From a virus: a stretch of DNA of 46,691 bases. This document shows, in pieces, positions 1 through 46,691 of this stretch. Both the position numbers and the translations under genes were made by a program. The first letter of the stretch is position 1, and every line of letters begins with the position of its first letter. Location: the IMG/VR virus record IMGVR_UViG_3300045988_173330. One strand, written 5' to 3'. The notes below the pieces were generated by a model, which searched no databases, had not been told where the DNA came from, and saw nothing but the letters and a program-made list of their open reading frames with translations.

Positions 1-55
1 TTTTAAGGGGGCAGAATCGCTTGGTTTTAGGGGGCAGCTTACACTGGATTTTCCA
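1..55. repeat. Left terminal inverted repeat (55 bp), made of two tandem units at 1-24 and 25-47
   Basis: ttttaagggggcagaatcgcttggttttagggggcagcttacactggattttcca is the exact reverse complement of 46637-46691. Identity stops at position 56 (a, versus c at 46636). Units: TTTTAAGGGGGCAGAATCGCTTGG and TTTTAGGGGGCAGCTTACACTGG. Confidence 0.97.
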
Positions 56-23594: not shown

Positions 23595-23602
23595 TATCTT
23601 TG
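23595..23602 (+). promoter_or_regulatory. -7 promoter box TATCTTTG
   Basis: Exact TAnnTTTG, 17 nt upstream of the ATG at 23619. Confidence 0.55.
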
Positions 23603-23618
23603 TGACAAAAAAAGAGAT

Positions 23619-25751: not shown

Positions 25752-25760
25752 TATAACGAT

Positions 25761-26039: not shown

Positions 26040-27394
26040 TGAACATATTGTTTAATTCAAGCGGCATTCCCCTGCTGATGCAGTCCACGTACATATTCGG
26101 CGAAACGACGGGGACACCCCAGAACGAAATGAAGGAGCGTACCCGAATCCTGGCGCCATATGACTTGTCGAATGTTTCCTATATAGACATCGACGGAGTG
26201 AAGGTGCGTCCATGGGGAGATGAGAATGATTTCCCCCAGAAGGCGGCTGAAGAGATAGGAAACACCAGCGTGCTCAATACGGGCCTGAAGTTTCTTCGTA
26301 ACCTGACACTTGGGCAAGGCATATATCCTTGTACGGTGAAAGGTTACGACAATGATGGCAACGAGATACTGAAGCCCGTTACCGATAGCCGAGTACAAGC
26401 TTTTATTGCTTCCCGGAATGTGAGGCGCTACATGGAGAAGGTGCTTCGGGATTACTTGAAATTCGGCAACGGTGCCGTCCAGTTTGTGCCGTCGGCTGCC
26501 GGCAATTCTTTTGCAGGGGTCAATCCGGTCAATGCGCTTTACCGCCGTTATTCCGAAGTGGACGAATACGGCGCCTGCAAGTGCATCATTTCCGGATATT
26601 GGCCGCAACGTCCGGACAAGGGACAATACACCAGGCTGGATGTGCTCTCCGAATACGACCCGCAGATGCACGCCGAGGTGTTGAAGTTTGCCGGAAAGGT
26701 GAGGGACGGTTTCATCATGCCGGTACGCGACAGCTGGAGCAACGACGACCTTTACGGCATGCCCATCTGGTGGCCCGCCTACGTTTGTGGATGGGTGGAG
26801 ATAGCCCATCTTATCCCCCATTTCCTCAAGAAAGCCTACAAGAACCAGATAACCTGGAAGTGGCATGTACAGATACCGTATTCCTACTGGGAGAAGAAAT
26901 ACCCGTCCAAGGACTATTCTGCCAAGGAGCGTGAGGCGGCCATACAGAAGTATATGGATTCTGTGGAGCAGAACCTTTGCGGACCGGACAATGCGGAGAA
27001 GCCCATCTTCTCTCATTATGCCGTGAACGAGATGAACGGCAGGATTGAGGAGGAGTGGAAAATCAAGCCGCTGGAGAACAAATACCAGGGTAGTGACAAT
27101 CTTCCGGTGTCGGCAGCCGCCAACTCGGAAATTCTGTTTGCATTGATGGTGAATCCGAATGTGCTCGGTGCAGGTATGCCCGGTGGCACCTATGCCGGCA
27201 ACCAGGGCGGTTCCAATATCCGTGAGGCTTTCCTTGTGAACATTGCCAACGCGTGGATTGACCGGCAGAATATCCTGGACCCTATAGAACTCTATATCAA
27301 AATGAACGGCATGCCGGAATGCGAGCTGCGTTTCCGCAATACCGTATTAGTAACCCTCGATACCGGCAGCGGTACCAAAAAAACATTGAGCTAA
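26039..27394 (+). CDS. Portal protein candidate
   Basis: 451-aa ORF. Size, plus a Gly-rich segment GAGMPGGTYAGNQGGSNIREAF reminiscent of portal tunnel regions. Call is by inference only. Confidence 0.4.
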   Translation: MNILFNSSGIPLLMQSTYIFGETTGTPQNEMKERTRILAPYDLSNVSYIDIDGVKVRPWGDENDFPQKAAEEIGNTSVLNTGLKFLRNLTLGQGIYPCTVKGYDNDGNEILKPVTDSRVQAFIASRNVRRYMEKVLRDYLKFGNGAVQFVPSAAGNSFAGVNPVNALYRRYSEVDEYGACKCIISGYWPQRPDKGQYTRLDVLSEYDPQMHAEVLKFAGKVRDGFIMPVRDSWSNDDLYGMPIWWPAYVCGWVEIAHLIPHFLKKAYKNQITWKWHVQIPYSYWEKKYPSKDYSAKEREAAIQKYMDSVEQNLCGPDNAEKPIFSHYAVNEMNGRIEEEWKIKPLENKYQGSDNLPVSAAANSEILFALMVNPNVLGAGMPGGTYAGNQGGSNIREAFLVNIANAWIDRQNILDPIELYIKMNGMPECELRFRNTVLVTLDTGSGTKKTLS

Positions 27395-28428
27395 TGATAT
27401 TCAGTGCAAAAAAATGGAACAACGGCAAGGAGCTGAAAGCGGTGATGAAGGTGAACACCGCCATCTCCTTTGACATGATGGAGGCACCGCTCCGGAATGC
27501 TTTCCGGCAATACCTCGTACCGTTATTGGGCGATGCGATGGTGGGAGAAGTGGTCGAGATATATGAATTCGGTCCAAATCCGGATGTATTGGAACAGAAT
27601 ACCGAAGGGGCAACCGAACGGGAGAAACTGGACAGCCGCCTGCTGGAGATCTGCAAACGCGCGAACGCGAACCTGGCGTTCTGGAACGATTTCGATGAAA
27701 TCAGCATGCGTATCACCGATGCGGGCTTCCAACGTCAGAAATCCGACAACGGCGAATCATTCCAGCAGGTGTACAAGTACCAGGAAGATAACCTGCGGGC
27801 ATCGTTACGCAACAAGGGGTTCAATGCGCTCGACGAGCTGCTTGAGTTTCTGTATGCCCATATAGCCGAATATCCGGAGTTCGCGTCCTCCCAGGCCTAT
27901 CAGGACCGTAAATCAGCCATTGTCCGCAGTACCGCGGATGTCAATGACGTCTGTTTTATCAATGGCAGCCGGATTGTTTTCCTCCGTCTGCAGCCGCACC
28001 TGAAGTTTGCCGAGGAGATGCTCCTTCAGCCGGCCATCGGTGACAAGCTGTATGAGCATCTGATTGACGGACTGGTAAATCCCCCAGAAGACGAAGAAGC
28101 CCGGAAGAGCATGGAGCGGTTGCGCCTTGCCTGCTCCCGCTACATTGTGGCAATGGCGGTCAGACGGCTGCTGATGGAGACGGGTAGCGTCACGGACCGG
28201 GGGCTGTACTTCACCGCTGTACAGCCGGGTGAGAAGGGCAATGAGGAGAAGAGACCCGTCGATACGGAGCGCATAGCCGTACAGATCCAGAATCTGAAAA
28301 CGGATGCGGACATGTACATGACCGTGCTGCTGCGTACGGTACGGAGCTGTTTTGAGAATTTCTATGAGGGTGATCCCAGGCAGATATACGACCGGGACAA
28401 TGACCATAAACGCACATTCTGGACATGA
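27394..28428 (+). CDS. Hypothetical virion-module protein
   Basis: Start at 27394 (TAATG overlap with the upstream stop) rather than 27319. 344 aa. Confidence 0.6.
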   Translation: MIFSAKKWNNGKELKAVMKVNTAISFDMMEAPLRNAFRQYLVPLLGDAMVGEVVEIYEFGPNPDVLEQNTEGATEREKLDSRLLEICKRANANLAFWNDFDEISMRITDAGFQRQKSDNGESFQQVYKYQEDNLRASLRNKGFNALDELLEFLYAHIAEYPEFASSQAYQDRKSAIVRSTADVNDVCFINGSRIVFLRLQPHLKFAEEMLLQPAIGDKLYEHLIDGLVNPPEDEEARKSMERLRLACSRYIVAMAVRRLLMETGSVTDRGLYFTAVQPGEKGNEEKRPVDTERIAVQIQNLKTDADMYMTVLLRTVRSCFENFYEGDPRQIYDRDNDHKRTFWT

Positions 28429-29692: not shown

Positions 29693-31834
29693 ATGTCTGA
29701 TACACTTACAACATTGAAGGAGCTGGCGGCACAAGTGCGTGGTGCCACCCGAAAAGGTGAGAATACGGCTGAACGTGTCGGGCGTCTCTTTGTGGGCATC
29801 CTTGCCCTCATGGAAGAATCCGAAATTTCATTCGAGCCTTCCGAGGGATACGATACGCTTGGGACATTGAAGGAACTGGCGGCACAGGTACGCAGTGCTA
29901 CCGAGGACAGTGAGAATACCGCCGAACGTGTCGGACGTGTTTTTGCCGGCATCCTGGATCTGCTGGAGCAGTCCGGTATCGAGTTCGATACTGCCGAAGG
30001 AGATGATTCCATAGAGATTCTGCAGTCCCTTTCCGACCAGGTACGTGGTGCCACCCGAAAAGGTGAGAATACGTCCGAACGTGTGGGGCGTCTCTTTGCG
30101 GGTATCTTGAATCTTTGGGCAATGAGAGCGGAGGACTGGAACAAGGTCATACCGCCCGTCTATGTCCGCAGCGACAACGGACGGCAATATCTCGGCATCT
30201 ACAACGCGACCAAATCGGTCATGGAGGACTATCCCGACGGTCTGACGCAGGATGTGACGATAACATGCACCCAGACCAACATAGACTACAAGGGCAACAG
30301 ATACCAGGATGAGGACAGCATGTGGAGCGTGGAGATGAAAGGCTGGAACCAGGATACCGCACATATACTTACCATTGACGGGGCCGGCAAATGCACACTC
30401 GACGGCCGCGGTTTCGGTGGCATACATATCGAGGATTGCAGTAACATCATCATCCGGGACATCACCTTCCTGAACTTCAATACCTACGAGGGTGTTTATG
30501 CACCGGAGGAGCCCGCCTGCATCTATGCCACAAACATCTCCAAACGCAAGCCTTGCCGCAACCTGTACTTTGAGAACCTGACCGTCAAAGGGCAGAGCAC
30601 CAAGAGTCCGAACTCCAATTACCGCACCCGCTACGGCATTACGGTCAAAGGATACGAGAATGTGTGTCTCCATAATATCCGTATGTCGCAGGTCGTTGTC
30701 CAGCCGATTTCCATTACAGACGCGAATACCGTCTATATATCAAAGATAAGATTCTCCGAATCAGTGATGCAGGCCGAAGTGGTCGGGCACCCGTCAATCA
30801 TGAGCCTTTCGGCAACGGATGTCTATATCATGGATTGTGACATAGACGGCAGCCATTACAATGAGGTAGCCATTTCCGTAGGCAAGGTCAAACAACTGTT
30901 CTTAGAGCGTAACCATATCTACAAGACCTGCGGACCGGTCATCGGAATAAGCAATGAACTCGGCGCGGACAAGATATTCATATCCGGCAATTACATGCAT
31001 GATAACATGGAGCTTCCGAAATACCAATGGGACTGCACGTGGTTCACGTTCCCCGGCATGTCCAAGGAAATAATAATCGCGAACAATACCTTCGTGTTCA
31101 GCAGCGGCTATTTCCAGGAGTTTTTCGCGCGTTCGAGCACTTCCGCTATCGAAAGGCTGGTCAATGTGAACAATATATTTGTCCGGCACAATGAGCAGAA
31201 TCATGGCATCTTCATCCTTTCGAGCGTCCATAGCCTCATAAGTGGCAGTAATATTTATAATAAGGAGACCGTATTGTACTCCATGGCCGACAATACTTCA
31301 CCGGTGTATTTTGCCGGAAACAACCAGGGAAACCTTGCGTACATACAAGCACAGGGATATGAGGCTGGCACGGCACAGATTACCGACGGGAGCGCCATCC
31401 TGATGGATGACCGCCCGTGTCTGACAGCGGAACTGGCAGCCATTCACAAGAGCGTCGCGGAATATGTACGTGAATTCGATTACAAGTACCAGACGAATGA
31501 CCGGGACAATACCAGCATCGGCTGTGACAACTACTACAGCGTCGAGTTTGACGAGACAGCCGACACCACCGATGGCTACGACGGTATAAACCGTTACAGC
31601 AATGAAGTCTTCAGCAGCGCTGCCCAATACAGTATGCCGTCAGACCAGACCCTGGTGTTGCTTGCACGGTCCAAGAACCGGGACAGGATGGTTGTGTTCA
31701 ACATAACCAAATCGGACGATGTCGGTAACCGGATTGTATCTGTCGGCCGCCTGGCATCGTTCTCCATCCGTCCGAAGCTTGACGGGAACGGAGAATATAC
31801 AGCAGACCAGTTATATGATGTAACCATTGAATAA
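29693..31834 (+). CDS. Tail fibre/spike with N-terminal 54-aa tandem repeats and a right-handed beta-helix (depolymerase-like) body
   Basis: 713 aa. Repeats TLKELAAQVRGATRKGENTAERVGRLFxGIL x3. PbH1-like rungs: IIIRDITFLNF, LYFENLTVKG, VCLHNIRMSQ, VYIMDCDIDG, IFISGNYMHDN, IIIANNTFVF. Confidence 0.75.
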   Translation: MSDTLTTLKELAAQVRGATRKGENTAERVGRLFVGILALMEESEISFEPSEGYDTLGTLKELAAQVRSATEDSENTAERVGRVFAGILDLLEQSGIEFDTAEGDDSIEILQSLSDQVRGATRKGENTSERVGRLFAGILNLWAMRAEDWNKVIPPVYVRSDNGRQYLGIYNATKSVMEDYPDGLTQDVTITCTQTNIDYKGNRYQDEDSMWSVEMKGWNQDTAHILTIDGAGKCTLDGRGFGGIHIEDCSNIIIRDITFLNFNTYEGVYAPEEPACIYATNISKRKPCRNLYFENLTVKGQSTKSPNSNYRTRYGITVKGYENVCLHNIRMSQVVVQPISITDANTVYISKIRFSESVMQAEVVGHPSIMSLSATDVYIMDCDIDGSHYNEVAISVGKVKQLFLERNHIYKTCGPVIGISNELGADKIFISGNYMHDNMELPKYQWDCTWFTFPGMSKEIIIANNTFVFSSGYFQEFFARSSTSAIERLVNVNNIFVRHNEQNHGIFILSSVHSLISGSNIYNKETVLYSMADNTSPVYFAGNNQGNLAYIQAQGYEAGTAQITDGSAILMDDRPCLTAELAAIHKSVAEYVREFDYKYQTNDRDNTSIGCDNYYSVEFDETADTTDGYDGINRYSNEVFSSAAQYSMPSDQTLVLLARSKNRDRMVVFNITKSDDVGNRIVSVGRLASFSIRPKLDGNGEYTADQLYDVTIE
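29702..30128 (+). repeat. In-frame tandem repeat, period 162 nt, about 2.6 copies
   Basis: Units start near 29702, 29855 and 30017. Units 1 and 3 share an identical 30-nt core, cgtggtgccacccgaaaaggtgagaatacg. Confidence 0.85.
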
Positions 31835-34985: not shown

Positions 34986-35009
34986 GATAATGAAATATAT
35001 AAAAGTAGT

Positions 35010-35534
35010 ATGGCTAAAGCAGAAATCTTATTCAAGGTCATCCGCAAATGGGAAGGCGGATGGAGTGACCACAAAAATGACAAAGGTGGCAAAACCAATA
35101 TGGGGATAACCTTGTCTACGTGGAAATCATGTGGTTATGACAAGGATGGTGACGGAGATATTGATGCGGATGATTTACGCATGATTACTCCGGATGACGT
35201 TTTTCATGTTTTCAAGAAGTATTATTGGGACCGTTACCAAGCGGACTTCATACACAACCAGTCCATTGCGAACATCTGTGTGGATTGGGTGTGGGCCTCC
35301 GGACGTCCCGGTATCACAAGGGTACAACAACTACTGCAAATCAATGTAGACGGCATCGTAGGTCCTCAGACGGTTGCAAGTATCAATCTGGCCAACCAAC
35401 GGCAGCTGTTCGAAGCTATCAAGACAGACAGAATCCGGTTTATTGAAGAAATCTGTAAAAGGGACCCGTCGCAGCTTGTATTCCGGAAAGGATGGCTGAA
35501 CCGGGTCAATGATTTCAAGTTCTCTGTCCGCTGA
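35010..35534 (+). CDS. Endolysin: GH108-type muramidase + PG_binding_3-type domain, with an EF-hand-like insert
   Basis: 174 aa. KWEGGWSDHKNDKGGKTNMGIT is the GH108 signature. The C-terminal DGIVGPQTVASIN is the peptidoglycan-binding pattern. The insert is DKDGDGDIDADD. Confidence 0.85.
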   Translation: MAKAEILFKVIRKWEGGWSDHKNDKGGKTNMGITLSTWKSCGYDKDGDGDIDADDLRMITPDDVFHVFKKYYWDRYQADFIHNQSIANICVDWVWASGRPGITRVQQLLQINVDGIVGPQTVASINLANQRQLFEAIKTDRIRFIEEICKRDPSQLVFRKGWLNRVNDFKFSVR

Positions 35535-35561
35535 ATTCTTGTCCTTTTTTCCACTCTTTTC

Positions 35562-35598
35562 AGCCTTTAGTTTTGTGTCCGGAACTAAAGGCTTTTTT
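35562..35598 (+). terminator. Intrinsic terminator after the endolysin gene
   Basis: AGCCTTTAGTT / AACTAAAGGCT stem, 10-nt loop, then TTTTTT. Confidence 0.8.
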
Positions 35599-36141
35599 AT
35601 GGCAATAACTGAAGAAAAGAGTTTAATGACCTCCGAGAAATTCAATCGAGGAGTTGAGAACTGGACGTGGAAAGTCAGGAATACCTCCGTAAATATTCTA
35701 CAACGGACACACGCAACCGGCAGATTGCGTAGGGAACTGCAATCCCGTTGGCTGAAAGACCGTGAAGGTGGACCGGCTTATGTCGGTCTGGGTTTCCGCT
35801 TTGCCCGGTATGGTGCGTACCGGGAGTATGGCGCCGGGCGTGGATATATCGTCAAGAACGGAATTATAATGAAGGGACATTCGGCATGGAGCGATAAGAA
35901 GAAACGTCAGGAACTGCGTTCTTTACGTGTTTCTGAATATCGTATCCGGCGCATGCGTACCGTTGATGAACACTATGCCGTTATCCGGCGAAGTCCCCTA
36001 CCCTGGTTAGACCCTCCCATTGTGGATAACATCGAATCACTGGCAGATTTATCCGGAGAGTATTACGGTGACCAGGCACTCAAGAATGTGCTTCAGAAGT
36101 TTGATAAAATAACAATTGAAAAACGTTATGGCAAAAAGTGA
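35599..36141 (+). CDS. Hypothetical basic protein upstream of the tape measure gene
   Basis: Start at the ATG at 35599, directly after the terminator; the ORF-track start at 35509 crosses the hairpin. 180 aa. Confidence 0.55.
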   Translation: MAITEEKSLMTSEKFNRGVENWTWKVRNTSVNILQRTHATGRLRRELQSRWLKDREGGPAYVGLGFRFARYGAYREYGAGRGYIVKNGIIMKGHSAWSDKKKRQELRSLRVSEYRIRRMRTVDEHYAVIRRSPLPWLDPPIVDNIESLADLSGEYYGDQALKNVLQKFDKITIEKRYGKK

Positions 36142-39100
36142 CAAGACTGTCAAAAGAGGTGTCTACTTGTACATCGATGGCAAGGAAATTAAGAATGACA
36201 TCAATTCCATTGATTTGGAGATGAAACGCCTACAGCGTGACATTAAGGAAATGACACGCGGCTCTGAGGAATACAACCGCACCATGGCGAAGATACAGCA
36301 TCTTCAGGGGATTTTAAAACAGCATCGCCAGGAGATAAAAGGCATCACCACCGAAACCAAGAAAGCGACTGTCAGTATTGGCAGTATGGTAGACTGGTTC
36401 AACCGTTTCGGTGGAGTTATCTTGTCCGTAATAGGTTTCCTTACCGGTTTTACCCTTGCCTTGCGCGCCATCAGAGACGAACGCAACAAGTTGGAGGAGT
36501 CCCAGGCCGGGCTGAAAGCCTTGACCGGACTTGATGATGACAGCATTGCCTGGTTGACCGGGCAGGCCAAGACGCTTTCCACCACCATGACAAAAGAGGG
36601 CTTGCGTGTCCGCCAGTCGGCAGCCGAAATCCTGGATGCGTTCATGCTGGTCGGTTCGGCCAAGCCGGAACTGCTTGGTGACAAGGAAGCGCTCAAGGCT
36701 GTTACGGAGGAAGCCATGCGGTTGCAGGCGGCAGCCAAGGACATTACCCTGAACGAAGCGGTTGATTCACTTACCTTATCACTCAACCAATATGGGGCGG
36801 CAGCAGACCAGGCAGGACGGTTTACCAACGTATTGGCTGCCGGCTCCCAGGCAGGTTCCGCCAATATCGCAAGCCAGGCAAAGGCTATCCGGAATGCAGG
36901 TACCGCAGCGGCTTCGGCCAATGTTCCCATTGAACAGACGGTCGCATTGATTGAAACGCTTGCCTATCGGGGTATAAAGGATGAAGTGGCCGGAACGGGA
37001 TTGAAGAAATTCTTTCTGGTTCTTCAGACCGGAGCGGACGAGACCAACCCTAAAATCGTCGGGTTGGATAAGGCACTGGAGAATCTGAAGAACAAGAATA
37101 TGGATGCAGGCGCCATCAAGAAGATGTTCGGGGAGGAAGGCTACAATACCGCATCCGTAATCCTTCAGAACACGGAGATGGTGAAAGACTTCACCGCTGC
37201 CGTCACCGGTACCAATGTGGCGTATGAGCAGGCGGCCATAAACAGTGATACTGCACAGGCCAAACTGGAGCAGGCACGCAATAAGATGAAGCTGGCAGCC
37301 ATTGATTTGGGAGAGAAACTGAATCCGGCTCTGACGGTGAGTACGAATATGCTGACCAATGTGCTCAAGTATTTGCCGGGATTGATTGACTGGTGCAAAA
37401 AATGGGGTGGTACTGTATTGTGGCTTAGTACGATATTGCTTGTATATGCTACCCGGCTGAAGATAATTACAGCATGGTATTCTATTTGGAATTCACTTAC
37501 CAAAATTGCGACAGTTCTCAATTTGGCTTATGCCGCATCAATGAATACATTGTCTGGTTATACAGTGACATCATTTGGAAACTTGCGTAAATTATCAATG
37601 CTCATGCAAGGACATTCTGTTTTACTTAAATCACTACGTACCGCCACTTATTTATATGCCGCTGCCGTGCAGGTTTTACACGGGCGCGTTGATTTGGCTG
37701 CCAAATCGCTGAAAGCAGCTTGGACTATTATGTCCAGCAATCCGATTGGCTTACTGGTTACATTAGTTCTTGCAGCAGCTACCGCATCCTACAAACTGAC
37801 ACAACGCACCAAAGCTTATTACGACCTAAATAAAGTCAATGAGAAAATTACAGAAAAATCAAATGATGAATATGCGCGTCAATCATCACTGATTGAACAG
37901 TTGACCACCAAAATACACAATAATAATCTTTCCAATTTTGAACGTAAAAAGGCAATTGTACAATTGCAGGCTATTATTCCGGATTATAATGCAGAGATTG
38001 ATAAAGAGGGCAAAATCATCAATGAAAACACAGAGGCACTTGACCGATATAATGCCGTATTAGCAACCAATATCGAATTAAAAGAGGCTGCCGACGAACT
38101 GGATAAGCACCGGATCAACCTGATGCGCCTTCAAAAATCCCCGGCATTGAGTGACAATTCACCGATGGGGTCGATGGCTCGCGAGGATGTTCGCAACAAG
38201 ATTTCCCAAGAAGAAGAGATTGTTGAATCTTTAACTGCACGTTATAAGAAACTGGTACAAGAAAAATGGAAAGCATTGAATCCGAACACTCCTAAAAACA
38301 ATCCCACCGGAGGCAATGACGGTGGAAAATGTCCGATATGTGGAAACAAACCTTGTACCTGCGATAAAAACAACACTTCCAAAGACAAGTTCGCCCAAGC
38401 TGAAGCCGACTACTACCGACGTATCGCTGACATCAAACGGAAGTACCTCGCTGACGATAAGATGACCCAGGAAGAATACAACAAGCAGATGCGGGATGCA
38501 GAAATACAACTGCTCAACGATAAGCTGAAGGTCAAGGGGCTTGAGCCTTCAGAGATTCAACGTATCAATGACCAAATACTTGATGCGGAAATAAAGGCGC
38601 GTGATGAATTGCGCAGGCTTGATGAACAGTCTGCCAAGGATGAAGAGAAACGCCGTAAGGAGCAGGCAGAAGAGACGTTTTCCCGTTTGGACAAAGAGTA
38701 CCAAATGCAGGTGGAAGCTGCCGCCATGTATCATTATGAAAACAGGACTTCCGAGGAGGAGTATTTCAATGAGCTGCGCAGACTGCAAGATGTATATTAC
38801 CATAAGGTTCTCAATGACGCGGCAATCAGTGAGGAGAAGAAAAACCAGGTACGTGAACAGATGCGTAAACGTAATCTGAAGGATGCCCAAAAAGATGCTG
38901 AAGAAGAAAAACGGATTGAACGTGAGAAGTTTGACATACTGTCTGACCTGGCGAAAGGCTTCGGAGAGACCATGGCGCAATTCTTCACGGACTCCGAGGT
39001 GTCTCTCAAGGACTTCCTGAAGAATATTCTTACTATGTCGCTTGATGCGTTGGAACGTATGATGATTATGGCCGTTACCGAACGCACCATCAAGAATATA

Positions 39101-39628
39101 GGTTCACTCGGCTTCGTAGGTGTAGCTAAAGCTGCCGGAGAGATTGCTCTGATAACTGCCGCATTTGAGACAGCCAAAGGGCTTATCTCCAATTTCTACA
39201 CCGGCGGCTTTACTCCGTCCGGTGACTGGAATCAGCCGCAAGGTATTGTACATTCCAATGAATTTGTCGCCAACCGTTTTGCTGTGGCCAACCCGAATCT
39301 GCGACCGATATTCGACGCCATTGACGTGGCACAGCGTAGCGGTAATGTTGGTAATCTGACAGCTGAAGACATAGCGGCTGTAGCAGGTTCCGGAAAGAGT
39401 ACACGTACCGTACCAGCCAAGGCACCTGCTGCCAGCGCCACAACGACGACCAATGACCCGGCTATGGTGGCGATGCTGATAGAATGTACCCGCGTATTGC
39501 GGAAGCTTAAAAACAGGCTGGATGCCCCTTTGGTAGCGGAAACTTATGTTACCGGCAAACGGGGTATCAACCAGGCACAAAAAGAATATCAGAAGTTGAA
39601 CAACAATAAATCACGCAACAAGCAATGA
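36128..39628 (+). CDS. Tail tape measure protein
   Basis: About 1166 aa from the ATG at 36128 (the track starts at a TTG at 36116). A TP901-type core-like segment AGSQAGSANIASQAKAIRNAGTAAASANVPIEQTVALIETLAYRGIKDEVAGTGLKKFF, a central cluster of hydrophobic helices, and long coiled coils. Confidence 0.9.
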   Translation: MAKSDKTVKRGVYLYIDGKEIKNDINSIDLEMKRLQRDIKEMTRGSEEYNRTMAKIQHLQGILKQHRQEIKGITTETKKATVSIGSMVDWFNRFGGVILSVIGFLTGFTLALRAIRDERNKLEESQAGLKALTGLDDDSIAWLTGQAKTLSTTMTKEGLRVRQSAAEILDAFMLVGSAKPELLGDKEALKAVTEEAMRLQAAAKDITLNEAVDSLTLSLNQYGAAADQAGRFTNVLAAGSQAGSANIASQAKAIRNAGTAAASANVPIEQTVALIETLAYRGIKDEVAGTGLKKFFLVLQTGADETNPKIVGLDKALENLKNKNMDAGAIKKMFGEEGYNTASVILQNTEMVKDFTAAVTGTNVAYEQAAINSDTAQAKLEQARNKMKLAAIDLGEKLNPALTVSTNMLTNVLKYLPGLIDWCKKWGGTVLWLSTILLVYATRLKIITAWYSIWNSLTKIATVLNLAYAASMNTLSGYTVTSFGNLRKLSMLMQGHSVLLKSLRTATYLYAAAVQVLHGRVDLAAKSLKAAWTIMSSNPIGLLVTLVLAAATASYKLTQRTKAYYDLNKVNEKITEKSNDEYARQSSLIEQLTTKIHNNNLSNFERKKAIVQLQAIIPDYNAEIDKEGKIINENTEALDRYNAVLATNIELKEAADELDKHRINLMRLQKSPALSDNSPMGSMAREDVRNKISQEEEIVESLTARYKKLVQEKWKALNPNTPKNNPTGGNDGGKCPICGNKPCTCDKNNTSKDKFAQAEADYYRRIADIKRKYLADDKMTQEEYNKQMRDAEIQLLNDKLKVKGLEPSEIQRINDQILDAEIKARDELRRLDEQSAKDEEKRRKEQAEETFSRLDKEYQMQVEAAAMYHYENRTSEEEYFNELRRLQDVYYHKVLNDAAISEEKKNQVREQMRKRNLKDAQKDAEEEKRIEREKFDILSDLAKGFGETMAQFFTDSEVSLKDFLKNILTMSLDALERMMIMAVTERTIKNIGSLGFVGVAKAAGEIALITAAFETAKGLISNFYTGGFTPSGDWNQPQGIVHSNEFVANRFAVANPNLRPIFDAIDVAQRSGNVGNLTAEDIAAVAGSGKSTRTVPAKAPAASATTTTNDPAMVAMLIECTRVLRKLKNRLDAPLVAETYVTGKRGINQAQKEYQKLNNNKSRNKQ

Positions 39629-41400
39629 CAGAATTATACATTGACGGGCAATTGGCCGCCCTTCCTGAAGGGTTCAACATTACGTTCACCTCCGAGAATC
39701 CGTATTTCACCCGCAGTTCCAATTACTCCTTGGACATAGAACTCCCCATGCCTGCCAATCATGCCATATTCAAGCACGTGAACAGACTGGATGTGACGAA
39801 AAAAAAGACTATCCTTCCGGCCACACTCATCGTTGACGCCAGATGCCTGCTTTACGGCAGTGCGGTTTTACTCTCAGTAGAAGATGCACTGGTTAAGGTA
39901 CAGCTCGTATCGGGTAATGCGGAATTTAATCTGCTGACGAATGATGATCTGTATATTGACGAACTTGATTTAGGTACAATCAGTTGGCCGAACAACAATC
40001 AGAACCGTTTCCAGCCACCTGCCAATATGGTGAACTACTACGGTTCGGTGGACGACATTGAAGCTGTATGGTTGCCGGTGTTCTATCAGGAAGCCAAATG
40101 GGAGAATCTTCAGAACGATGCAATCTATGAGTTCGGCACGAACAATTTTACCCTTTGCCCCTATTATGGCCGTCGATGTGTACAACCATACCTTTTGACA
40201 GTCATCAAGAGAATAGTGGAGTATTTTGGCTATACGTTCGATACCTCCTTCTTTGATAACAATTTCTTGCGGAACGTTTATGTATGCAGCGCGGTAAGCA
40301 GCAACCGGGTGGCCGCCGCATTGCCGCACTGGACTGTTTCCGAATTCTTTGATGAACTGGAGAAATTCCTTTGTGCGGTTACGGTGGTCAACGAACGCAC
40401 CAAAGTGGTGAGTCTCGTAGGGCTTAACGATTATTTTACAGAATCCGGAAAGGAGATAATTCCTGCATCTTCCCTGCTACGGGAGTTCACTGTGGATATT
40501 GAAGATGAAAAGAATGAGAAAGACTTGAGCACTGGCAATGTGGGCTACAATCTGCCTTCCCATACGGATGACGGCTATCTGCGAATTGAAAGGGACATCA
40601 TAGAGGCTGCATACAAACAAGAATATGATTCTTACGATGCAATGCTGGCCGCATACAATGGAATGGGTGACAGTGACAAGAAAAGTACAATCTTTATTGT
40701 TGGCAAACGGTATTATATCAACTACAATGAAAATGATAAGAATACGCTGCGTGAAGTCAATTTGTATGCGGATTTAATCCGTGACCCGGAATCGTCCGAT
40801 GTAGAGACCTCACTCGGAATCGTCCCGGCTAAAATTATTCAGTTCAATGTCGGCGTGTATGGCTCTGTAGCTGATTACGATTTGTCCCGTCCGTACACCT
40901 CCATGGTATTGAACATACCCGCGGTGGGCTACCAGGCTACTGTTGCCAAGCAGGAGCGCTTCAATGTCCAGGAAGCCATAAACGGTGACGTGGAGCTGAA
41001 GGAGAAGCAGGAAAAAAACGGGCACATGGAAGTGGCTGTCAATACCGGCAAGTTCAACCGGCAGAACGTAACTTACAGCGGTCAGACACATGCCTATGAT
41101 TATGCCTATCCTTTTACGGACTACCAGCAGAAGACCGAAGCACAGCTCACGGACTTCCTTCCGTATTCCCTAAGCTTGAACGATGTTTGTCCGGACAGTG
41201 TCGGACATCGGTTGTCGACACTCAGTCTGTTTCACTCCAATATCCCTTACACAATCCAGTTCCAAGCCAATAAGCTGCCAGATGTGAATAAGGTGTTTCT
41301 TATAGGCAACAAGCAGTATTTGTGCGAGAAGATTGAGACGGAAATAGATGTTGATGGATTAAGCAAGGTACTGAAGGGGACTTTTTACCGGATAGAATAA
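39625..41400 (+). CDS. Distal tail / baseplate-type protein (by position after the tape measure)
   Basis: 591 aa; ATGA overlap with the tape measure stop. Confidence 0.55.
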   Translation: MTELYIDGQLAALPEGFNITFTSENPYFTRSSNYSLDIELPMPANHAIFKHVNRLDVTKKKTILPATLIVDARCLLYGSAVLLSVEDALVKVQLVSGNAEFNLLTNDDLYIDELDLGTISWPNNNQNRFQPPANMVNYYGSVDDIEAVWLPVFYQEAKWENLQNDAIYEFGTNNFTLCPYYGRRCVQPYLLTVIKRIVEYFGYTFDTSFFDNNFLRNVYVCSAVSSNRVAAALPHWTVSEFFDELEKFLCAVTVVNERTKVVSLVGLNDYFTESGKEIIPASSLLREFTVDIEDEKNEKDLSTGNVGYNLPSHTDDGYLRIERDIIEAAYKQEYDSYDAMLAAYNGMGDSDKKSTIFIVGKRYYINYNENDKNTLREVNLYADLIRDPESSDVETSLGIVPAKIIQFNVGVYGSVADYDLSRPYTSMVLNIPAVGYQATVAKQERFNVQEAINGDVELKEKQEKNGHMEVAVNTGKFNRQNVTYSGQTHAYDYAYPFTDYQQKTEAQLTDFLPYSLSLNDVCPDSVGHRLSTLSLFHSNIPYTIQFQANKLPDVNKVFLIGNKQYLCEKIETEIDVDGLSKVLKGTFYRIE

Positions 41401-41469
41401 TAATGTTAAAAAGACATCTGCCTCTCAAAAATAACTCCTTTTTCCCTTGCGTAATTACCAAAAGGTTAT

Positions 41470-41477
41470 TATATTTG
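41470..41477 (+). promoter_or_regulatory. -7 promoter box TATATTTG (TATATTTGCAG)
   Basis: Exact TAnnTTTG, 11 nt upstream of the ATG at 41488. Preceded by the inverted repeat TAATTACC aaaa GGTTATTA. Confidence 0.5.
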
Positions 41478-41487
41478 CAGTGTCATA

Positions 41488-41700
41488 ATGTATCGCGATC
41501 TTTTTATGACTGAAGAAGAAGAGCTAAAGGCTCGGATTGAAGCTGCGAAAAAAGACCTCAGCTTCTTTTCCCTCTATTGGGATGACATTCAGAATACTGA
41601 TTGGATTTCCGATGAGGAGCTTGAGGAAGGCATCAATGATTGTCTCGATGACTTGAATGATGCACAAGACAAGCTGAATGAAAACGGTAGCCCTCCTTGA
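41488..41700 (+). CDS. Hypothetical acidic small protein
   Basis: 70-aa ORF with its own -7 box and terminator. Confidence 0.5.
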   Translation: MYRDLFMTEEEELKARIEAAKKDLSFFSLYWDDIQNTDWISDEELEEGINDCLDDLNDAQDKLNENGSPP

Positions 41701-41714
41701 GGGGGCTACTTTTT
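41687..41714 (+). terminator. Intrinsic terminator overlapping the stop codon
   Basis: GTAGCCCTC / GGGGGCTAC stem (one G-U pair), 5-nt loop, then TTTTT. Confidence 0.7.
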
Positions 41715-41738
41715 CTCTAACATATAATTTTTAGGCTT

Positions 41739-42167
41739 ATGGACGTACAGAAAGAATTGGGAAAATGGAAGTCGGAATATGTAAAATGCAATACTCCGGA
41801 GGAATTGGCCGACCATAAAAAACGTTTCAGGGCTTTTCTGCAGACGCTTTCACCGGAGGATAAAAAAGCGTTTGCGCAAGCATTCCAAGATGGTGCCAGG
41901 CAATCAATCAATGAAGCCCAAGCCATTGTGAAAACAGTAGAAATCAGGCAGACCTTAGAAAAAGTATTGCCTTTCGCTTCTATGTCGTATATTGCCCAGC
42001 ACTATTTTGGCAGAACACGCCAATGGCTATATCAACGGATTAACGGAAGTGCGGTAAACGGCAAACCAGCCAACTTCACCGCTGATGAACTGAATACTCT
42101 ATCTTTAGCTCTATCTGAGCTTGGCGACATAATGAAAGATACTTCTCGGTCTATCGCGAGGCCGTAA
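41739..42167 (+). CDS. DUF5053-family protein
   Basis: 142 aa. RQWLYQRINGSAVNGKPANFTADELNTL matches the conserved core of this Bacteroidota phage-associated family, as I recall it. Confidence 0.7.
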   Translation: MDVQKELGKWKSEYVKCNTPEELADHKKRFRAFLQTLSPEDKKAFAQAFQDGARQSINEAQAIVKTVEIRQTLEKVLPFASMSYIAQHYFGRTRQWLYQRINGSAVNGKPANFTADELNTLSLALSELGDIMKDTSRSIARP

Positions 42168-42185
42168 GGTTTTTAATGACAGAGG

Positions 42186-42212
42186 GGCTTCCACGGGTTG
42201 GAAGCCTTTTTT
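42186..42212 (+). terminator. Intrinsic terminator; marks the core/right-arm boundary
   Basis: GGCTTCCA / TGGAAGCC stem, loop CGGGT, then TTTTTT. Confidence 0.85.
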
Positions 42213-42270
42213 ATTTCATTATTCAAATAATCATGAATTAAATTTAGAATAAAAAGTTTTTTTATTTTGT

Positions 42271-42278
42271 TAAGTTTG
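42271..42278 (+). promoter_or_regulatory. -7 promoter box TAAGTTTG
   Basis: Exact TAnnTTTG, about 134 nt upstream of the ATG at 42412. The leader contains ATGAATTAAAT twice and the hairpin AACCCA-taagat-TGGGTT. Confidence 0.45.
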
Positions 42279-42411
42279 ATAAAATCACTATTTTAGCAAC
42301 GCCAAAAAATGAATTAAATGAATCCTTTTCCATAGTGTAACCCATAAGATTGGGTTCAGGTTTATTCATTCCTGTAGGCGCACTATAGTGAAGGATTCGC
42401 CATTTAATATT

Positions 42412-43815
42412 ATGACAAACAAAAAATACAAATCTATCAGTATTTCTAATTTAATTATAAATCCAGATAATGATCGTTTTGAGTCTGTTGAGAATGAAAA
42501 GCAGGCTATAGACATAATGCTAACAAAATTAGGAGACAAAATTTATTATATTGCGATACATATTTTAGAGAATGGGTTGTCTCCCAAGCCATTTTATGTT
42601 ATGCCATCAAAGAAATCTAACAAGAAATTTCTTGTAAAGGAAGGAAACAGAAGAACCACAGCATTAAAATTGATGGCTAACCCTAAGTTAATTGATTCTA
42701 AAAAACATGCTTCATTAAAGAATCGTTTTTTTAAGCTGCATGAAAGATTTATGGAAACTCCGATTAGAAAAATAATGTGCTATATTTATGATGATGTAGA
42801 AGAGGCAGATAAATGGGTTCGATTAGAACATACAGGAGAACAGAATGGAGTTGGTATAGTTGAGTGGAAACCAGAGCAAGTACAGAGATTTGATATAAAA
42901 CATGGAAAAAATAAGTCTGTAGAAATACAAGCTATTGATTTCATACGAACATCTCCTTTCGTACAAGAAGAAGTAAAGAGGGCTTCCGAAAACATTAAAC
43001 TCACAAATTTTGCTCGTTTATTAGGAGATAAAAGTGTTCGGGAAATTTTGGGTTTAAAGTATATAAATTCTAAATTAAGTTCTAATCTTGAAGAAGAAGA
43101 AATAGCTAAGGCCTTAGGGCAAATTATTTTAGATTTGTCTGATAAAGATTTTAAGGTTAGTTCTATATATAATGCCAAGCAAAGAAAAGATTATATTCAA
43201 GGCTTAGGAGAAAAACTGCCTGATAAAAATAAGACAATAGGAGAAGTTTGGAGGTTGGATAATCCATTAGAACAAATTCCTAATTTGGAAGAAGAAGATA
43301 ATACAGCAAAGAATGAGGGAAGTGATTTGCATTCTAAGGGACATTTAAAGAAGTCTATTCCGACCCAACGTAAAACTCTTATACCCAATAATTGTATTAT
43401 TAGGATTTCCAATCCAAAAGCAAATAAAATTTATGATGAATTGAAAAAAATAGATGTTCGAAGTTTTGTTAATTGTGCAGCTGTCACTTTGAGAGTTTTT
43501 TTAGAATTAAGTGTAGATACTTTCATTGAAAAAAAAGGATTACTTAAAGAAGGAGAAATTTCGGCTTCCAATTCTTCAAGAAGTTTGTATCAGAAGGTTA
43601 ATGATGCTAGTCAATACTTATATAAAGAGAAAATTGCAGATGAAACAATATTAAAAGCTGTAAAATTATTAACCAAAGAACGTAATTCTATTTGGGGAGT
43701 GGATACAATGAATGCTTATGTACATAGTAACAAACTTTCCCCTGTGCCAATAGATATTCAAACAACTTGGGATAATATTCAGGATTTTATGGTAATCTTG
43801 GAATATCTTTTTTAG
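42412..43815 (+). CDS. ParB/Srx-fold (ParB-N or DUF262-like) N-terminal domain protein with an unassigned C-terminal domain
   Basis: ATG at 42412 preferred over the GTG at 42388. ISISNLIINPDNDRFE ... VKEGNRRTTALKLM resembles the ParB-N / DGQQR-type motif. About 467 aa. Confidence 0.6.
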   Translation: MTNKKYKSISISNLIINPDNDRFESVENEKQAIDIMLTKLGDKIYYIAIHILENGLSPKPFYVMPSKKSNKKFLVKEGNRRTTALKLMANPKLIDSKKHASLKNRFFKLHERFMETPIRKIMCYIYDDVEEADKWVRLEHTGEQNGVGIVEWKPEQVQRFDIKHGKNKSVEIQAIDFIRTSPFVQEEVKRASENIKLTNFARLLGDKSVREILGLKYINSKLSSNLEEEEIAKALGQIILDLSDKDFKVSSIYNAKQRKDYIQGLGEKLPDKNKTIGEVWRLDNPLEQIPNLEEEDNTAKNEGSDLHSKGHLKKSIPTQRKTLIPNNCIIRISNPKANKIYDELKKIDVRSFVNCAAVTLRVFLELSVDTFIEKKGLLKEGEISASNSSRSLYQKVNDASQYLYKEKIADETILKAVKLLTKERNSIWGVDTMNAYVHSNKLSPVPIDIQTTWDNIQDFMVILEYLF

Positions 43816-43983
43816 TGCCTTATACAAAGGACTTTGGGAGAATTACCCAATTTTGAGGTAATGACTTGGCAACTGTGCAATCTGCTGCGTTATACCTTGA
43901 ATTGCTTTCAAGTAACTCGTTTCCGTGTACAAAAATAATAGAATAGTCCGATGCACACAAGGTACATCAAAGAAAAAGTTCGA

Positions 43984-46599
43984 CTATTTGTTTAGTTTGT
44001 TTAATCGCATTACAATTGAAGTTTGACTTCTACCCATTTTGTTTGCAATATATTTGACACTCTTACCTTCATTGTGCAGTTTCAATAAAAATTGGTCTGC
44101 ACTTCTTGTCCATCTTTTATTGGCGTTAGGGTGCTTTACATAGCTTTCTTCTGACACCTTTTCGGGGTGCAAGAATTCATCCACAAATACAGACGGGAAA
44201 CGCTTATCGTATAATACAAGCGTTTTTACCTTAGCCCTTGTTATTGCAACATAGAATAATCTTCTTTCTTCTCCGTATGGGAATTGGTCGCTCTTAGTGA
44301 GCACATAGTTAAGCACAGGGTCGTTACTCACCTGTGATGGGAAACCGTATGTATCTTTATTGCATTGTAAGAGTATTACATAATCCGCTTCAAGACCTTT
44401 TGACTTATGTACGGTTAAAAACTCTATTTTTCGTCCTCCTATCACATAGTAGAATCTATTACCCTCTTTAATTGATTGGTACATAAAAGAGAGGTAGTAA
44501 TCATCAAAAGAGTAACGCCCCAATAGGAATATTGATTTATCCGATGGAATAGAAGCCACAAGTTGCCCTATCGTATTGCAGTAATCTCGTCTATCATAAG
44601 TATAGAATTCCAACTCGGTTCTCATTTCTGAGCTGAACGAATGGATACTCTTTTGTATTTGGGCTTTATTGCGTTGTATAAAGTTCGACGATAAAGAAAC
44701 CAAAGGCTCTCCAAACCTGTATGTAGTTTCAATCTTGTTTATCTCCGTTGCTCCAAAATATTCGGGGAATTGATTGAATAGAGCCATATCACTTCCCGAA
44801 AAACGATAAATAGACTGCCAATCATCACCCACACAATACAACTTTGCAGGAGGATTACCCTCTCGCAATACTTTCAAGAAGTTGTAACGGTCAACAGAAA
44901 TATCTTGAAACTCATCCACTATGATATAATCATATTCAACAGGGTGTGAAGTACGACATATCTCAGTGGCTTGAAGAATAGCATCGGTAAAATCAATTTG
45001 GTTACTATCGCTTAACGCATTTATGTAGCGTTCATATACAGGTTGAAATATATTCTTGATGATAAACACACTTCGTTCATCATCTGCATTTTTGGCTTGT
45101 TTCAAAACCTCTTTAACTGATTTACAACTTGATTTTACCAATGTAACGAAAGTAACAACAAGTCGTATAAACGCCTTTTCCTGCTTGCTGCCTTTGGGTA
45201 GTACTAAATCGTATAACTCCTCATCGGTCTTTTCTTGAATTGGTACACCTGCTTCAGCTAATAGTTTACGAAGTTTATCCCTAATATCAGAATAATGGAA
45301 ATCTGCACTTGATGTCACTAAAAGTTGTGTACCAAATTTCTCGTGAGCCGCTTTTTTCCAAGTTATACCATCATTGTATTTCTGATAGGCTTCTTCGTAG
45401 GTTATACCCTTGTCTTTTGCGAACCAAGCAGGAACAAGTCCGTGTTCATCAACTCCGAAATGTTCAAGATAGATGCGTTTGGTTACTCCTTCTTGCTTAA
45501 AATATATTGAGAAGTCGGGACGATATTGTGAGTGCATCTCATCTGCTAATTGATGTTCGTATGGTTCTTCATATCTGAATTTCACTCCCAGCGAGGACAA
45601 AGCAAAACATATTTTTTGTTCTTGTTCACTTCTCACATATATGGCTCTGCCGTCCATATCGGGGAACATCGCCTTTAGCTGCACATTCTTTTGCTCTGAT
45701 AATTGCTCTCGTCTTTCATTCTTGCGTTGTTCCCAATCGGCTTCATTCGTTTGGTAATCAATGAAGTATTCCACTATACTTTTCTTGAAAGACGATTTAT
45801 CTAATAATTTGTGATATATATCAACAAACAATGAATCTGTATTGTCGCAAATCGATGGTTTTGTGCCTGTTGTTTTGCCTATAATATCAATGGCTAACTT
45901 ATGGAATGTGTAACCTTTCAATCCATTGGTCGCCATTCTTTCGGTTAGTTCGGCTGCTGCTTTGTTCGTGTAACTGATTAGTAATATTTTATGAGGTGCA
46001 ATGCCTTTTACTTCCGTCAAGTATTTGACTTTTCCCACAATAGAAGAGGTCTTTCCGCTACCTGCACTACTAACGACCAAGCAATTATCTTCCTCTGAAA
46101 CGATTGAACGTCTTTGTTGCATGTCTAATGGATATTTTAGACAATGGTCGAAAAAATCTTTATGAGCGTCAAGCAAAAATGTGATAACGCCCTCATTATG
46201 CTGTTTTACAAGTTTATTGATGGCTCCAAAATCATTGATGAATTTGGAAATGTTTTCAGATGGAGTGATTTTAAAGGCTTCAAGTTTCTTCAAAAGAGAA
46301 TATGCCTCTTGAAAATGTGATTTGTAATGATTTATAAAATCTTGTTCTTGCGTTGCAGAGATTATCTTGCCATAAAAGCCATTGTTCAAGTCGGTAGGAA
46401 TATCTATAAACTCTTTCTCATTGAGAGTAGATAATCTATCTTTTGCTTGCTCATAGTTTGATTTCTCGCTATATGAAGATATCTGACTGAACTTTTCTGA
46501 AAGTGCATTGACTTGTTTTTTTAGGCGTATTCGTACCATTGCCATCACGATAACCGAAATCGCAATTATACAAATCATCATAATAAACAATGGCTGCAT
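43984..46599 (-). CDS. Membrane-anchored SF1 (UvrD/helicase IV-like) helicase with an inserted Vsr/DUF559-like PD-(D/E)xK module and a C-terminal HTH
   Basis: 871 aa. N-terminal TM helix LFIMMICIIAISVIVMAMV. Motif I SSAGSGKTSSIVGKV, motif II IIVDEFQDIS, and late motifs TVHKSKGLEADYV and LFYVAITRAK. Nuclease-like YRPDFSIYF...IYLEHFG. C-terminal WTRSADQFLLKLHNEGKSVKYIANKMGRSQTSIVMRL. Confidence 0.85.
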   Translation of the reverse strand: MQPLFIMMICIIAISVIVMAMVRIRLKKQVNALSEKFSQISSYSEKSNYEQAKDRLSTLNEKEFIDIPTDLNNGFYGKIISATQEQDFINHYKSHFQEAYSLLKKLEAFKITPSENISKFINDFGAINKLVKQHNEGVITFLLDAHKDFFDHCLKYPLDMQQRRSIVSEEDNCLVVSSAGSGKTSSIVGKVKYLTEVKGIAPHKILLISYTNKAAAELTERMATNGLKGYTFHKLAIDIIGKTTGTKPSICDNTDSLFVDIYHKLLDKSSFKKSIVEYFIDYQTNEADWEQRKNERREQLSEQKNVQLKAMFPDMDGRAIYVRSEQEQKICFALSSLGVKFRYEEPYEHQLADEMHSQYRPDFSIYFKQEGVTKRIYLEHFGVDEHGLVPAWFAKDKGITYEEAYQKYNDGITWKKAAHEKFGTQLLVTSSADFHYSDIRDKLRKLLAEAGVPIQEKTDEELYDLVLPKGSKQEKAFIRLVVTFVTLVKSSCKSVKEVLKQAKNADDERSVFIIKNIFQPVYERYINALSDSNQIDFTDAILQATEICRTSHPVEYDYIIVDEFQDISVDRYNFLKVLREGNPPAKLYCVGDDWQSIYRFSGSDMALFNQFPEYFGATEINKIETTYRFGEPLVSLSSNFIQRNKAQIQKSIHSFSSEMRTELEFYTYDRRDYCNTIGQLVASIPSDKSIFLLGRYSFDDYYLSFMYQSIKEGNRFYYVIGGRKIEFLTVHKSKGLEADYVILLQCNKDTYGFPSQVSNDPVLNYVLTKSDQFPYGEERRLFYVAITRAKVKTLVLYDKRFPSVFVDEFLHPEKVSEESYVKHPNANKRWTRSADQFLLKLHNEGKSVKYIANKMGRSQTSIVMRLNKLNK

Positions 46600-46636
46600 A
46601 TTAGAAGTAATATTTATCTGAATCTTTCAATCCATC

Positions 46637-46691
46637 TGGAAAATCCAGTGTAAGCTGCCCCCTAAAACCAAGCGATTCTGCCCCCTTAAAA
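46637..46691. repeat. Right terminal inverted repeat (55 bp)
   Basis: tggaaaatccagtgtaagctgccccctaaaaccaagcgattctgcccccttaaaa is the exact reverse complement of 1-55. Confidence 0.97.

Follow-up and report, generated by a model that had tools for sequence, protein, structure and literature searches.

Hhe, a single-gene defence reported by Gao et al. (2020), joins a superfamily 1 (SF1) helicase and a nuclease of the PD-(D/E)xK superfamily in one stand-alone polypeptide; its helicase is Upf1-like rather than UvrD-like, and it is not known to have a transmembrane (TM) anchor. The active site of the Vsr nuclease of Hhe, E1731, is located near the C-terminus of a very large protein (10.1101/2022.06.16.496414). 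SNIPE (PD-lambda-1), which consists of DUF4041 and a GIY-YIG nuclease and has no motor, is anchored in the membrane and cuts phage DNA while this is being injected; removal of its TM segment makes it toxic (PMC13190303). In RecB and AddA, a UvrD-like SF1A motor is coupled to DNA degradation by a C-terminal nuclease within multi-subunit complexes, while E. coli HelD (DNA helicase IV) is an SF1A UvrD-like motor with a minimal 2B domain, encoded at a fixed chromosomal locus. Here we compare with these systems an 871-aa protein whose gene (43984-46599, minus strand) lies at the right end of IMG/VR virus record IMGVR_UViG_3300045988_173330, a stretch of 46,691 nt that is called the window below. 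On balance we are slightly inclined to think that this gene, the terminal cargo gene of an integrative mobilizable element (IME), encodes a stand-alone, horizontally mobile membrane-tethered helicase-nuclease that probably acts on DNA entering at the membrane.

Domain architecture of the 871-aa protein

In an open reading frame (ORF) check of the window, the gene was found to begin with ATG and to code for 871 aa, and its DNA is 100% identical to an IME cargo gene of Bacteroidales. A first-pass annotation had proposed a four-part architecture for its product, namely an N-terminal TM helix, an SF1 helicase, an inserted nuclease-like module and a C-terminal helix-turn-helix (HTH), and this proved real. 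Pfam returned UvrD-helicase (3.2e-37), AAA_19 (3.4e-21) and UvrD_C (5e-16), and every motif of the UvrD/helicase IV set that had been quoted was found, with AGSGKT at 179-184, DEFQD at 562-566, TVHKSKGLE at 729-737 and VAITRA at 784-789. An alignment was built from 56 members of the family (29-41% identical to the query, one at 72%), in which Q162, G180, G182, K183, D562, E563, Q565, D566, R628, K734, G735, R780 and R788 are invariant, as are the residues of Walker A, motif II, motif V and motif VI. When the AlphaFold2 (AF2) model of the whole protein (pLDDT 87.7) was searched with Foldseek, UvrD, Rep and PcrA were matched at E ~1e-16, with RecB and AddA also among the matches. Pfam, the invariant motifs and these structural matches together place the protein among the SF1A UvrD-like helicases.

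The similarity to E. coli HelD is collinear, at 32% identity, over query residues 133-289 and 484-811. The C-terminal part of the helicase core (aa 484-811, 44167..45150; all parts of the gene are on the minus strand), which comprises the rest of 1B/1A, 2A and a minimal 2B, aligns with HelD 359-671, includes nearly all of the best stretch of the PRK11054 profile (481-811) and was also recognised by Foldseek. A helical N-terminal stalk (aa 23-150, 46150..46533) was delimited from the AF2 secondary structure, and its last part aligns with the N-terminal region of helicase IV, BLASTP pairing residues 133-289 with HelD 172-335. However, against PRK11054, the NCBIfam equivalog for helicase IV, the protein scored 338.3 bits, with a cut-off of 543 bits, and HelD lacks a TM anchor, the ~190-aa nuclease insert of domain 1B and any C-terminal HTH or zinc ribbon; its locus is fixed, whereas the gene studied here is mobile cargo. 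The protein can thus be described from its sequence as a helicase IV-like SF1A helicase, yet no helicase IV orthologue, and the housekeeping HelD that the first-pass annotation had named as a possible alternative is set aside by this score and by the lack of a conserved chromosomal context. The RNA-polymerase-recycling HelD of Gram-positives was also considered and rejected, its structures (6wvk, 6yxu) appearing far down the Foldseek list and the protein being absent from the matches by sequence; the TM anchor also argues against it.

The insert was located by a search against solved structures, in which UvrD 10-75 aligns with query residues 158-223 and UvrD 167-310 with 515-654. About 290 query residues stand in for ~90 residues of UvrD domain 1B, and in a pairwise alignment E. 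coli helicase IV has no counterpart of residues ~290-483. The insert sits between motif Ia and motif II, within domain 1B, and holds a predicted PD-(D/E)xK nuclease domain of 165 aa (aa 306-470, 45190..45684), which is absent in E. coli HelD. Its conserved residues are S324, E327, Y343, E344, Y359, P361, D362, F363 and E379, all invariant in the 56 members, together with the near-invariant H380, W414 and K415 and with H419. Pfam and PADLOC gave weak hints only (Phage_endo_I 0.066, the C-terminus of PDC-S68 2.8e-6 and HEAT_CxxC_PDDEXK 1e-4). A profile of the insert compared with structures matched T7 endonuclease I (E 7e-5 to 3e-4), to which the string S-x-x-E ... YE ... Y-x-PDF ... (I/L)-E aligns. 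The domain-only AF2 model of the insert reached a pLDDT of 95.9 and a pTM of 0.90, and its top Foldseek matches in the PDB were all PD-(D/E)xK nucleases: TnsA (prob 0.97), the DUF559-like 3hrl (0.93), FokI, MspJI, BamHI and Vsr (TM-score ~0.5). In the viral structure library BFVD, 17 matches were obtained at E <= 1e-3, and those that bear a name are all restriction-endonuclease-like, namely DUF2726, restriction enzymes, a Vsr-type mismatch endonuclease, a homing endonuclease and a Holliday-junction resolvase.

Profile and model comparisons thus confirm a predicted restriction-endonuclease-like fold for the insert, closest by sequence to T7 endonuclease I, and matches to TnsA, 3hrl, Vsr and DUF2726 extend over the wider PD-(D/E)xK superfamily. 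The Vsr/DUF559-like module that had been noticed between motifs I and II was therefore right at the superfamily level, with profile, PDB and BFVD evidence in agreement, and support for a nuclease fold was found where it had been sought, at residues ~300-400. E327, D362 and E379 align with the catalytic E20, D55 and E65 of T7 endonuclease I, that is, with its acidic metal site. The catalytic K67, in contrast, aligns with F381, a position occupied by Phe, Tyr, Trp or Gln in the family, beside the near-invariant His (H380) that follows the Glu; K415 is conserved elsewhere in the domain. T7 endonuclease I is also a free domain-swapped dimer, whereas the insert is modelled as a monomeric domain embedded in the helicase.

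Residues 4-22 (46534..46590) form a strongly hydrophobic 19-mer with a mean Kyte-Doolittle hydropathy of 3.11, and AF2 places a single unbroken helix across residues 3-38, which agrees with the N-terminal TM helix of the first-pass annotation. Since R23, R25, K27 and K28 follow this helix, an N-out/C-in topology is predicted. The C-terminal tail (aa 832-870, 43990..44106) is HTH-like, with AF2 helices at 832-843, 848-855 and 859-870. The profile matches of the tail fall under their cut-offs (HTH_38 at E 1.1e-4 and 22 bits, with a cut-off of 27 bits; Myb at 0.025; HTH_36 likewise), so that of the proposed Myb/sigma-r4-like HTH the three-helix bundle stands in the model, while the assignment to those families is weakly suggested at most. 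A survey of tails found a CxxC...CxxC zinc ribbon at this position in most relatives, the HTH being confined to a Bacteroidales clade.

Like Hhe, the protein combines an SF1 helicase with a nuclease of the PD-(D/E)xK superfamily in a single stand-alone chain, but the proposed membership of Hhe failed: the Hhe nuclease lies near residue 1731 of a far larger protein, whereas here the chain has 871 aa, the nuclease domain is at 306-470 inside domain 1B and a TM anchor is present. No Hhe model was among the PADLOC matches listed for the N-terminus, the insert or the tail, or among the best 25 for the full protein and for the C-terminal half. With SNIPE the protein shares an N-terminal TM anchor that would put a DNA-binding module and a nuclease at the inner membrane. 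The two are not homologous, the one being a helicase with a PD-(D/E)xK domain and the other a motorless GIY-YIG nuclease, and neither DUF4041 nor GIY-YIG gave a Pfam match in the 871-aa protein; the function of SNIPE was shown experimentally, whereas we infer that of the present protein. Its difference from RecB and AddA is that the predicted nuclease lies in 1B, within a single chain. GajB and RTasHel were the top PADLOC matches, via the shared helicase core, but GajB has no nuclease and requires GajA, while the 871-aa protein has its own nuclease-fold insert. The neighbours do not fit Gabija either: in the window they are PD-Lambda-5_A and the end of an IS21-family insertion sequence (IS), and in the IME they are two small secreted-looking proteins without a Pfam match. 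A literature search found no description of an architecture joining a TM helix, a helicase and a nuclease in domain 1B.

The protein family and its nested mobile elements

An exhaustive HMMER search returned 2,312 clusters at 50% identity (E <= 1e-30), and the top 150 align in one stretch over residues ~100-810, insert included. In 85 full-length clusters at the same identity, 56 have a TM helix, 78 the nuclease motif (Y-x-PDF...E-[HY]-[FYW]-[GA]), 53 both, and at least 68 a C-terminal CxxC...CxxC zinc ribbon; the TM helix was likewise found in 44 of the 56 aligned relatives. The anchor and the nuclease insert accordingly appear as a conserved family design, not a one-off fusion. Distant members come from many phyla and usually keep the nuclease motif (56/63), the anchor being often missing. 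The query itself has thousands of near-identical relatives in gut Bacteroidales, and the exact 871-aa protein is listed in 2,845 index blocks. Family members are also carried on 46 plasmids, 32 of them from Acinetobacter, while deposited phage genomes have almost no instance of the insert domain, which was found there in 2 short contigs only.

No conserved partner gene was found in 63 diverse loci by all-against-all BLAST of 354 neighbours. The genes that surround family members in other genomes include DISARM DrmA/DrmD (E = 0), BrxH, NERD, T5orf172, PLD, HipA and HNH proteins, and umuD and a 3'-5' exonuclease are found nearby on one plasmid. On the Acinetobacter baumannii plasmid pAb-C102_1 (NZ_CP051863.1), a family member at 3935-6673 is accompanied by a multiubiquitin-domain protein, a second UvrD-like helicase of 1,130 aa, a sigma-70 factor, DUF3800 and IS5, surroundings that look like an accessory or defence-type region. 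Acinetobacter would be a tractable genus for functional work on the family.

The gene had been taken as phage-encoded, but it turned out to be the last gene of an IME inserted in the phage. Window positions 43792-46636 are identical over 2,846/2,846 nt to the right end of an IME of ~10.5 kb in the complete genome CP133452.1 (L083), and the identity to IME copies (L080-L085) stops exactly where the flanks of the element itself diverge. The gene order of the IME is a tyrosine integrase, small ORFs, a DUF5906 primase-like gene, Toprim, a Mob_Pre relaxase, a 192-aa ORF, a 219-aa ORF and the helicase. In 14/14 contexts examined, at 14 different chromosomal sites, the gene for the exact protein or a 94%-identical one is the last gene of this one IME, so no housekeeping context of the helicase IV kind was found. 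The IME is very common in gut Bacteroidales. Its non-coding right end occupies 43792..43983 (minus strand), up to the junction where IME copies and phage relatives diverge, with a GGTAA microhomology at 43792-43799. A bare 2.7-kb helicase cassette taken up by the phage, considered on the basis of a 90% match to L001-L008, was superseded by the 100% match that reaches the IME's own end. The 192-aa and 219-aa proteins (L083:8723-9986) both begin with MRKLI...SYAQ, a signal-peptide-like start, and gave no Pfam match; the 219-aa protein has internal repeats of the form TQNMWTFI.LD.Y.G..WQVQ.S, and both proteins recur in one close relative only (Muribaculum).

The phage DNA next to the IME carries PD-Lambda-5_A (42388..43815, plus strand; PADLOC 1.9e-150), which is context only and lies outside the helicase system. 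Eleven related phage contigs (L172-L182) match window 35006-43799 at ~99% and diverge at the GGTAA microhomology. In these relatives, which have no IME, gene A runs a few codons longer and is followed by a 289-aa D12-class methyltransferase, PD-Lambda-5_B (2.1e-119), so that A and B are intact, while B is absent from the window. These alignments show that the IME integrated between genes A and B and split the pair. The IME/phage junction lies 23 nt inside the 3' end of the window's gene A and hence between A and the helicase, and these two genes are therefore neighbours by accident. The GC content falls from 0.46-0.50 for the tail genes to 0.31 for gene A, and the helicase has 0.35-0.39. The window's gene A lacks its last few native codons, and the IME has pushed its partner B beyond the window; should A be the effector and B a protective methylase, the split PD-Lambda-5 might be without activity or conditionally toxic.

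A perfect 55-nt inverted repeat is present at both window ends (1..55 and 46637..46691), and the start codon of the helicase lies exactly 37 nt from it, as had been stated. The right-hand copy had been read as the terminal inverted repeat (TIR) of the element, but it is in fact one end (IRR) of an IS21-family insertion sequence, because 58 viral contigs share the repeat core with unrelated flanks and complete copies encode IstA and IstB. The hits in these contigs are co-oriented: the side corresponding to the window interior differs in every contig, and the other side is conserved and of two types. Six contigs hold both end types 2,635 bp apart (for example L014:8543-11177), with ORFs of 526 and 260 aa between them. 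The former is IstA (HTH, rve 4.9e-11, Mu-transpos_C_2) and the latter IstB (IstB_IS21 1.3e-65), and three subterminal GGGGGCA/TAG repeats are found at each IS end. With istA and istB between terminal repeats at many insertion sites, the element belongs to the IS21 family, and the repeat is best described from these alignments as the terminal 51-55 nt of a 2,635-bp IS; target-site duplications are not evident at the complete copies. An invertible 2.6-kb segment between repeats, suggested by paired hits 2,568 nt apart, was rejected, as the 2.6 kb itself is conserved and the outer flanks are unrelated.

Both window ends (46637..46691 on the minus strand, 1..55 on the plus strand) are of the istB-proximal or B type, as expected for DNA between two inverted IS copies, and the analysis shows that contig breaks in IS21 copies at both ends create the apparent 55-nt TIR; 55 nt would also be a common k-mer size of de Bruijn assemblers. 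Beyond the left edge the phage continues: twelve related viral contigs run more than 11 kb leftwards past window position 56, through early and replication genes that the window does not have. The window is thus, on comparison with its relatives, a fragment of a larger phage between two IS21 ends and no complete element. A Mu-like transposable phage bounded by TIRs was rejected, since no DDE transposase was found among the window ORFs scanned, the repeat is IS21 and the phage runs on beyond it. The same IS ends delimit the IMG/VR contigs L020 (4.4 kb) and L058 (7.2 kb), which may likewise be mis-scored as complete. The IS21 copy at the right end breaks the IME within the last codons of the 219-aa ORF, and the 37-nt spacer (46600..46636, minus strand) consists of 14 nt of native intergenic DNA and the last 23 nt of this truncated ORF, as seen in alignments to L001 and L083. 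The alignments show a nested arrangement, an IS21 copy inside an IME inside the PD-Lambda-5 operon of a prophage.

A promoter overlapping the repeat, by which expression would be coupled to the state of the element end, had also been suggested, but no near-consensus Bacteroides -7 box was found in the spacer or the IS end, and no link between expression and a phage end came to light. The scan was pattern-based only, for the Bacteroides consensus TAnnTTTG, and at <=1 mismatch it found no box in the 37-nt spacer and the last 400 nt of the IS, and none in the 250 nt before the ATG, whether in the IS-interrupted arrangement or in the native one. In the native IME the helicase ATG lies 14 nt after the 219-aa ORF, and the only consensus boxes are one before the 192-aa gene and one within the 219-aa ORF, 361 nt upstream of the ATG. 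Transcription of istA and istB runs towards the IRR end and shares its direction with the helicase gene, and read-through from istAB into the helicase is possible as judged by this orientation.

Functional interpretation and alternatives

Because the anchor is conserved, the motor intact, the domain in 1B nuclease-like and the terminal module of a DNA-binding type, a membrane-tethered, ATP-driven degradation of incoming DNA can be proposed. The TM helix would keep the enzyme on the cytoplasmic side of the inner membrane, off the nucleoid, and the C-terminal HTH or zinc ribbon, together with the motor, would engage DNA at the membrane, either injected phage DNA or DNA entering by conjugation. 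The 3'-5' motor would then use ATP to unwind the engaged DNA. In UvrD and PcrA, domain 1B contacts the fork; a nuclease carried on it would be positioned at the junction of duplex and single-stranded DNA and might cleave the fork or the displaced strand. The outcome would be a single-chain, membrane-tethered, RecB-like degradation machine, for which self and non-self would be decided by location, as for SNIPE, and the carrier mobile element would benefit from the exclusion of phages or rival elements. An accessory and defence-like status is suggested because the gene has no conserved partner, is carried by an IME and, in its family, by plasmids, has a GC content below that of the phage and has relatives with defence-type neighbours. 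The family may thus defend bacteria against incoming DNA and is a credible defence candidate.

Several points weigh against this proposal. Since the canonical lysine of the E-x-K motif is replaced by Phe, Tyr or Trp (E379-H380-F381 in the query), nuclease activity is not assured and the domain might bind DNA without cutting it. The TM anchor is lacking in about one third of the closest clusters and in many distant members, and tethering therefore cannot be essential to the core activity of the family. The control for defence-type neighbours failed to discriminate, with 165 PADLOC families among genes at least 5 kb away in the same loci and 97 among the near ones, so that the association with defence islands is qualitative and suggestive. 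The literature search also found no paper on this helicase-nuclease family. Moreover, both -7 boxes lie beyond the IS insertion point and the IS separates the gene from them, so expression of the window copy may be low if there is no read-through from istAB.

Among the alternatives, we consider it unlikely, though deserving of attention, that the protein is a helicase IV paralogue which, with a domain that cleaves junctions, has an accessory part in DNA repair or recombination and serves stalled forks, recombination intermediates or the transferred DNA of the element itself rather than foreign DNA. Its best curated match is indeed DNA helicase IV, with a collinear core, the insert has a Holliday-junction resolvase, T7 endonuclease I, as its nearest relative by sequence, family members are chromosomal in many phyla, and umuD and an exonuclease lie nearby on one plasmid. 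Yet the score is well under the equivalog cut-off (338 vs 543 bits), a membrane anchor would be odd for a fork-repair enzyme, and the gene travels as IME and plasmid cargo with no conserved context and with defence-type neighbours at several loci. Still somewhat harder to credit is a role in the service of the IME, be it entry exclusion or competition against related mobilizable or conjugative elements, or aid to the replication, excision or establishment of the IME. The gene is always the last of the IME, co-oriented with the mob and primase genes and 14 nt after the ORF upstream, and conjugative DNA enters single-stranded at the membrane, which would suit a membrane-tethered 3'-5' helicase; however, most family members are found outside IMEs and without mob or integrase neighbours, a place beside attR is the usual position of cargo, and the two upstream genes look secreted and unrelated.

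The two readings that take the window as it stands are far less plausible. A phage-encoded Hhe-like defence gene, with a promoter that overlaps the terminal repeat of the phage and reports the state of the element end, is very improbable. In its favour, 37 nt separate the ATG from the perfect 55-nt inverted repeat at the edge of the contig, and Hhe too is, in broad terms, made up of a helicase and a PD-(D/E)xK nuclease. Against it, the repeat, an IS21 end, recurs at 58 unrelated sites, IME DNA accounts for 100% of the gene and its flanks, the phage extends past the window, Hhe has another size and domain order, deposited phage genomes hardly contain the insert domain (the 2 short contigs) and no -7 box was found in repeat or spacer. 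We give even less credence to a two-gene variant in which the helicase partners PD-Lambda-5_A and replaces the methyltransferase-like B. The two genes are convergent neighbours 168 nt apart, and the PADLOC match of A is strong (1.9e-150), but the IME/phage junction runs between them, 23 nt inside the 3' end of A. Eleven relatives have A followed by a genuine B and no helicase, fourteen IME copies carry the helicase without A, and recurrent adjacency of A and the helicase in independent lineages was not seen; with B absent from the window and the helicase across the IME boundary, the helicase does not qualify as a PD-Lambda-5 component.

Phage backbone of the window and wider meaning

The remainder of the window is phage DNA. 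Its recognised genes encode an S24/CI-like repressor (202-903), an HTH_3 regulator on the opposite strand (4001-4381), a CHC2 primase with DUF3854 (6328-9381), a head maturation protease (11524-12960), a tape measure protein of 1,170 aa (36116-39628) and a DUF5053 protein (41739-42167), and neither an integrase nor a DDE transposase was found among the window ORFs scanned. Three tandem 153-nt repeats (72-90% identical; 29699-30106) stand at the start of a 713-aa ORF (29693-31834), which is predicted to be a repeat-containing structural protein. A gene-order conflict is seen at ~23183-27423, where five relatives (L172, L175-L178) run from PD-Lambda-5_B and ~1.1 kb of unrelated DNA into window 23189-27423, whereas the window and MT836146.1 are contiguous across 23189; the similarity starts exactly at a gene start. 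This conflict could reflect mosaic module shuffling or a circular or tandem form of ~23 kb.

The locus is a worked example of nested mobile elements, whatever the function of the helicase-nuclease, and it carries a warning for virome catalogues, as assembly breaks at IS copies can mimic complete viral genomes with inverted terminal repeats (ITR). A bolder view of the protein, which we hold only tentatively and regard as more doubtful than its action on entering DNA as such, is that this unnamed and widespread family is a single-gene immune system that destroys DNA processively at the inner membrane and recognises non-self by location, with no role for sequence or modification. If this is true, the family would be the motor-driven counterpart of SNIPE, spread in the human gut by an abundant mobilizable element of Bacteroidales. 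It would add a new architecture, together with a processive motor, to the few defence proteins that discriminate self by membrane position, of which SNIPE is the only characterised example we found. Given that the exact protein is among the commoner accessory genes of human-gut Bacteroidales, a phenotype of this protein would matter for phage therapy and for gene flow in the gut.

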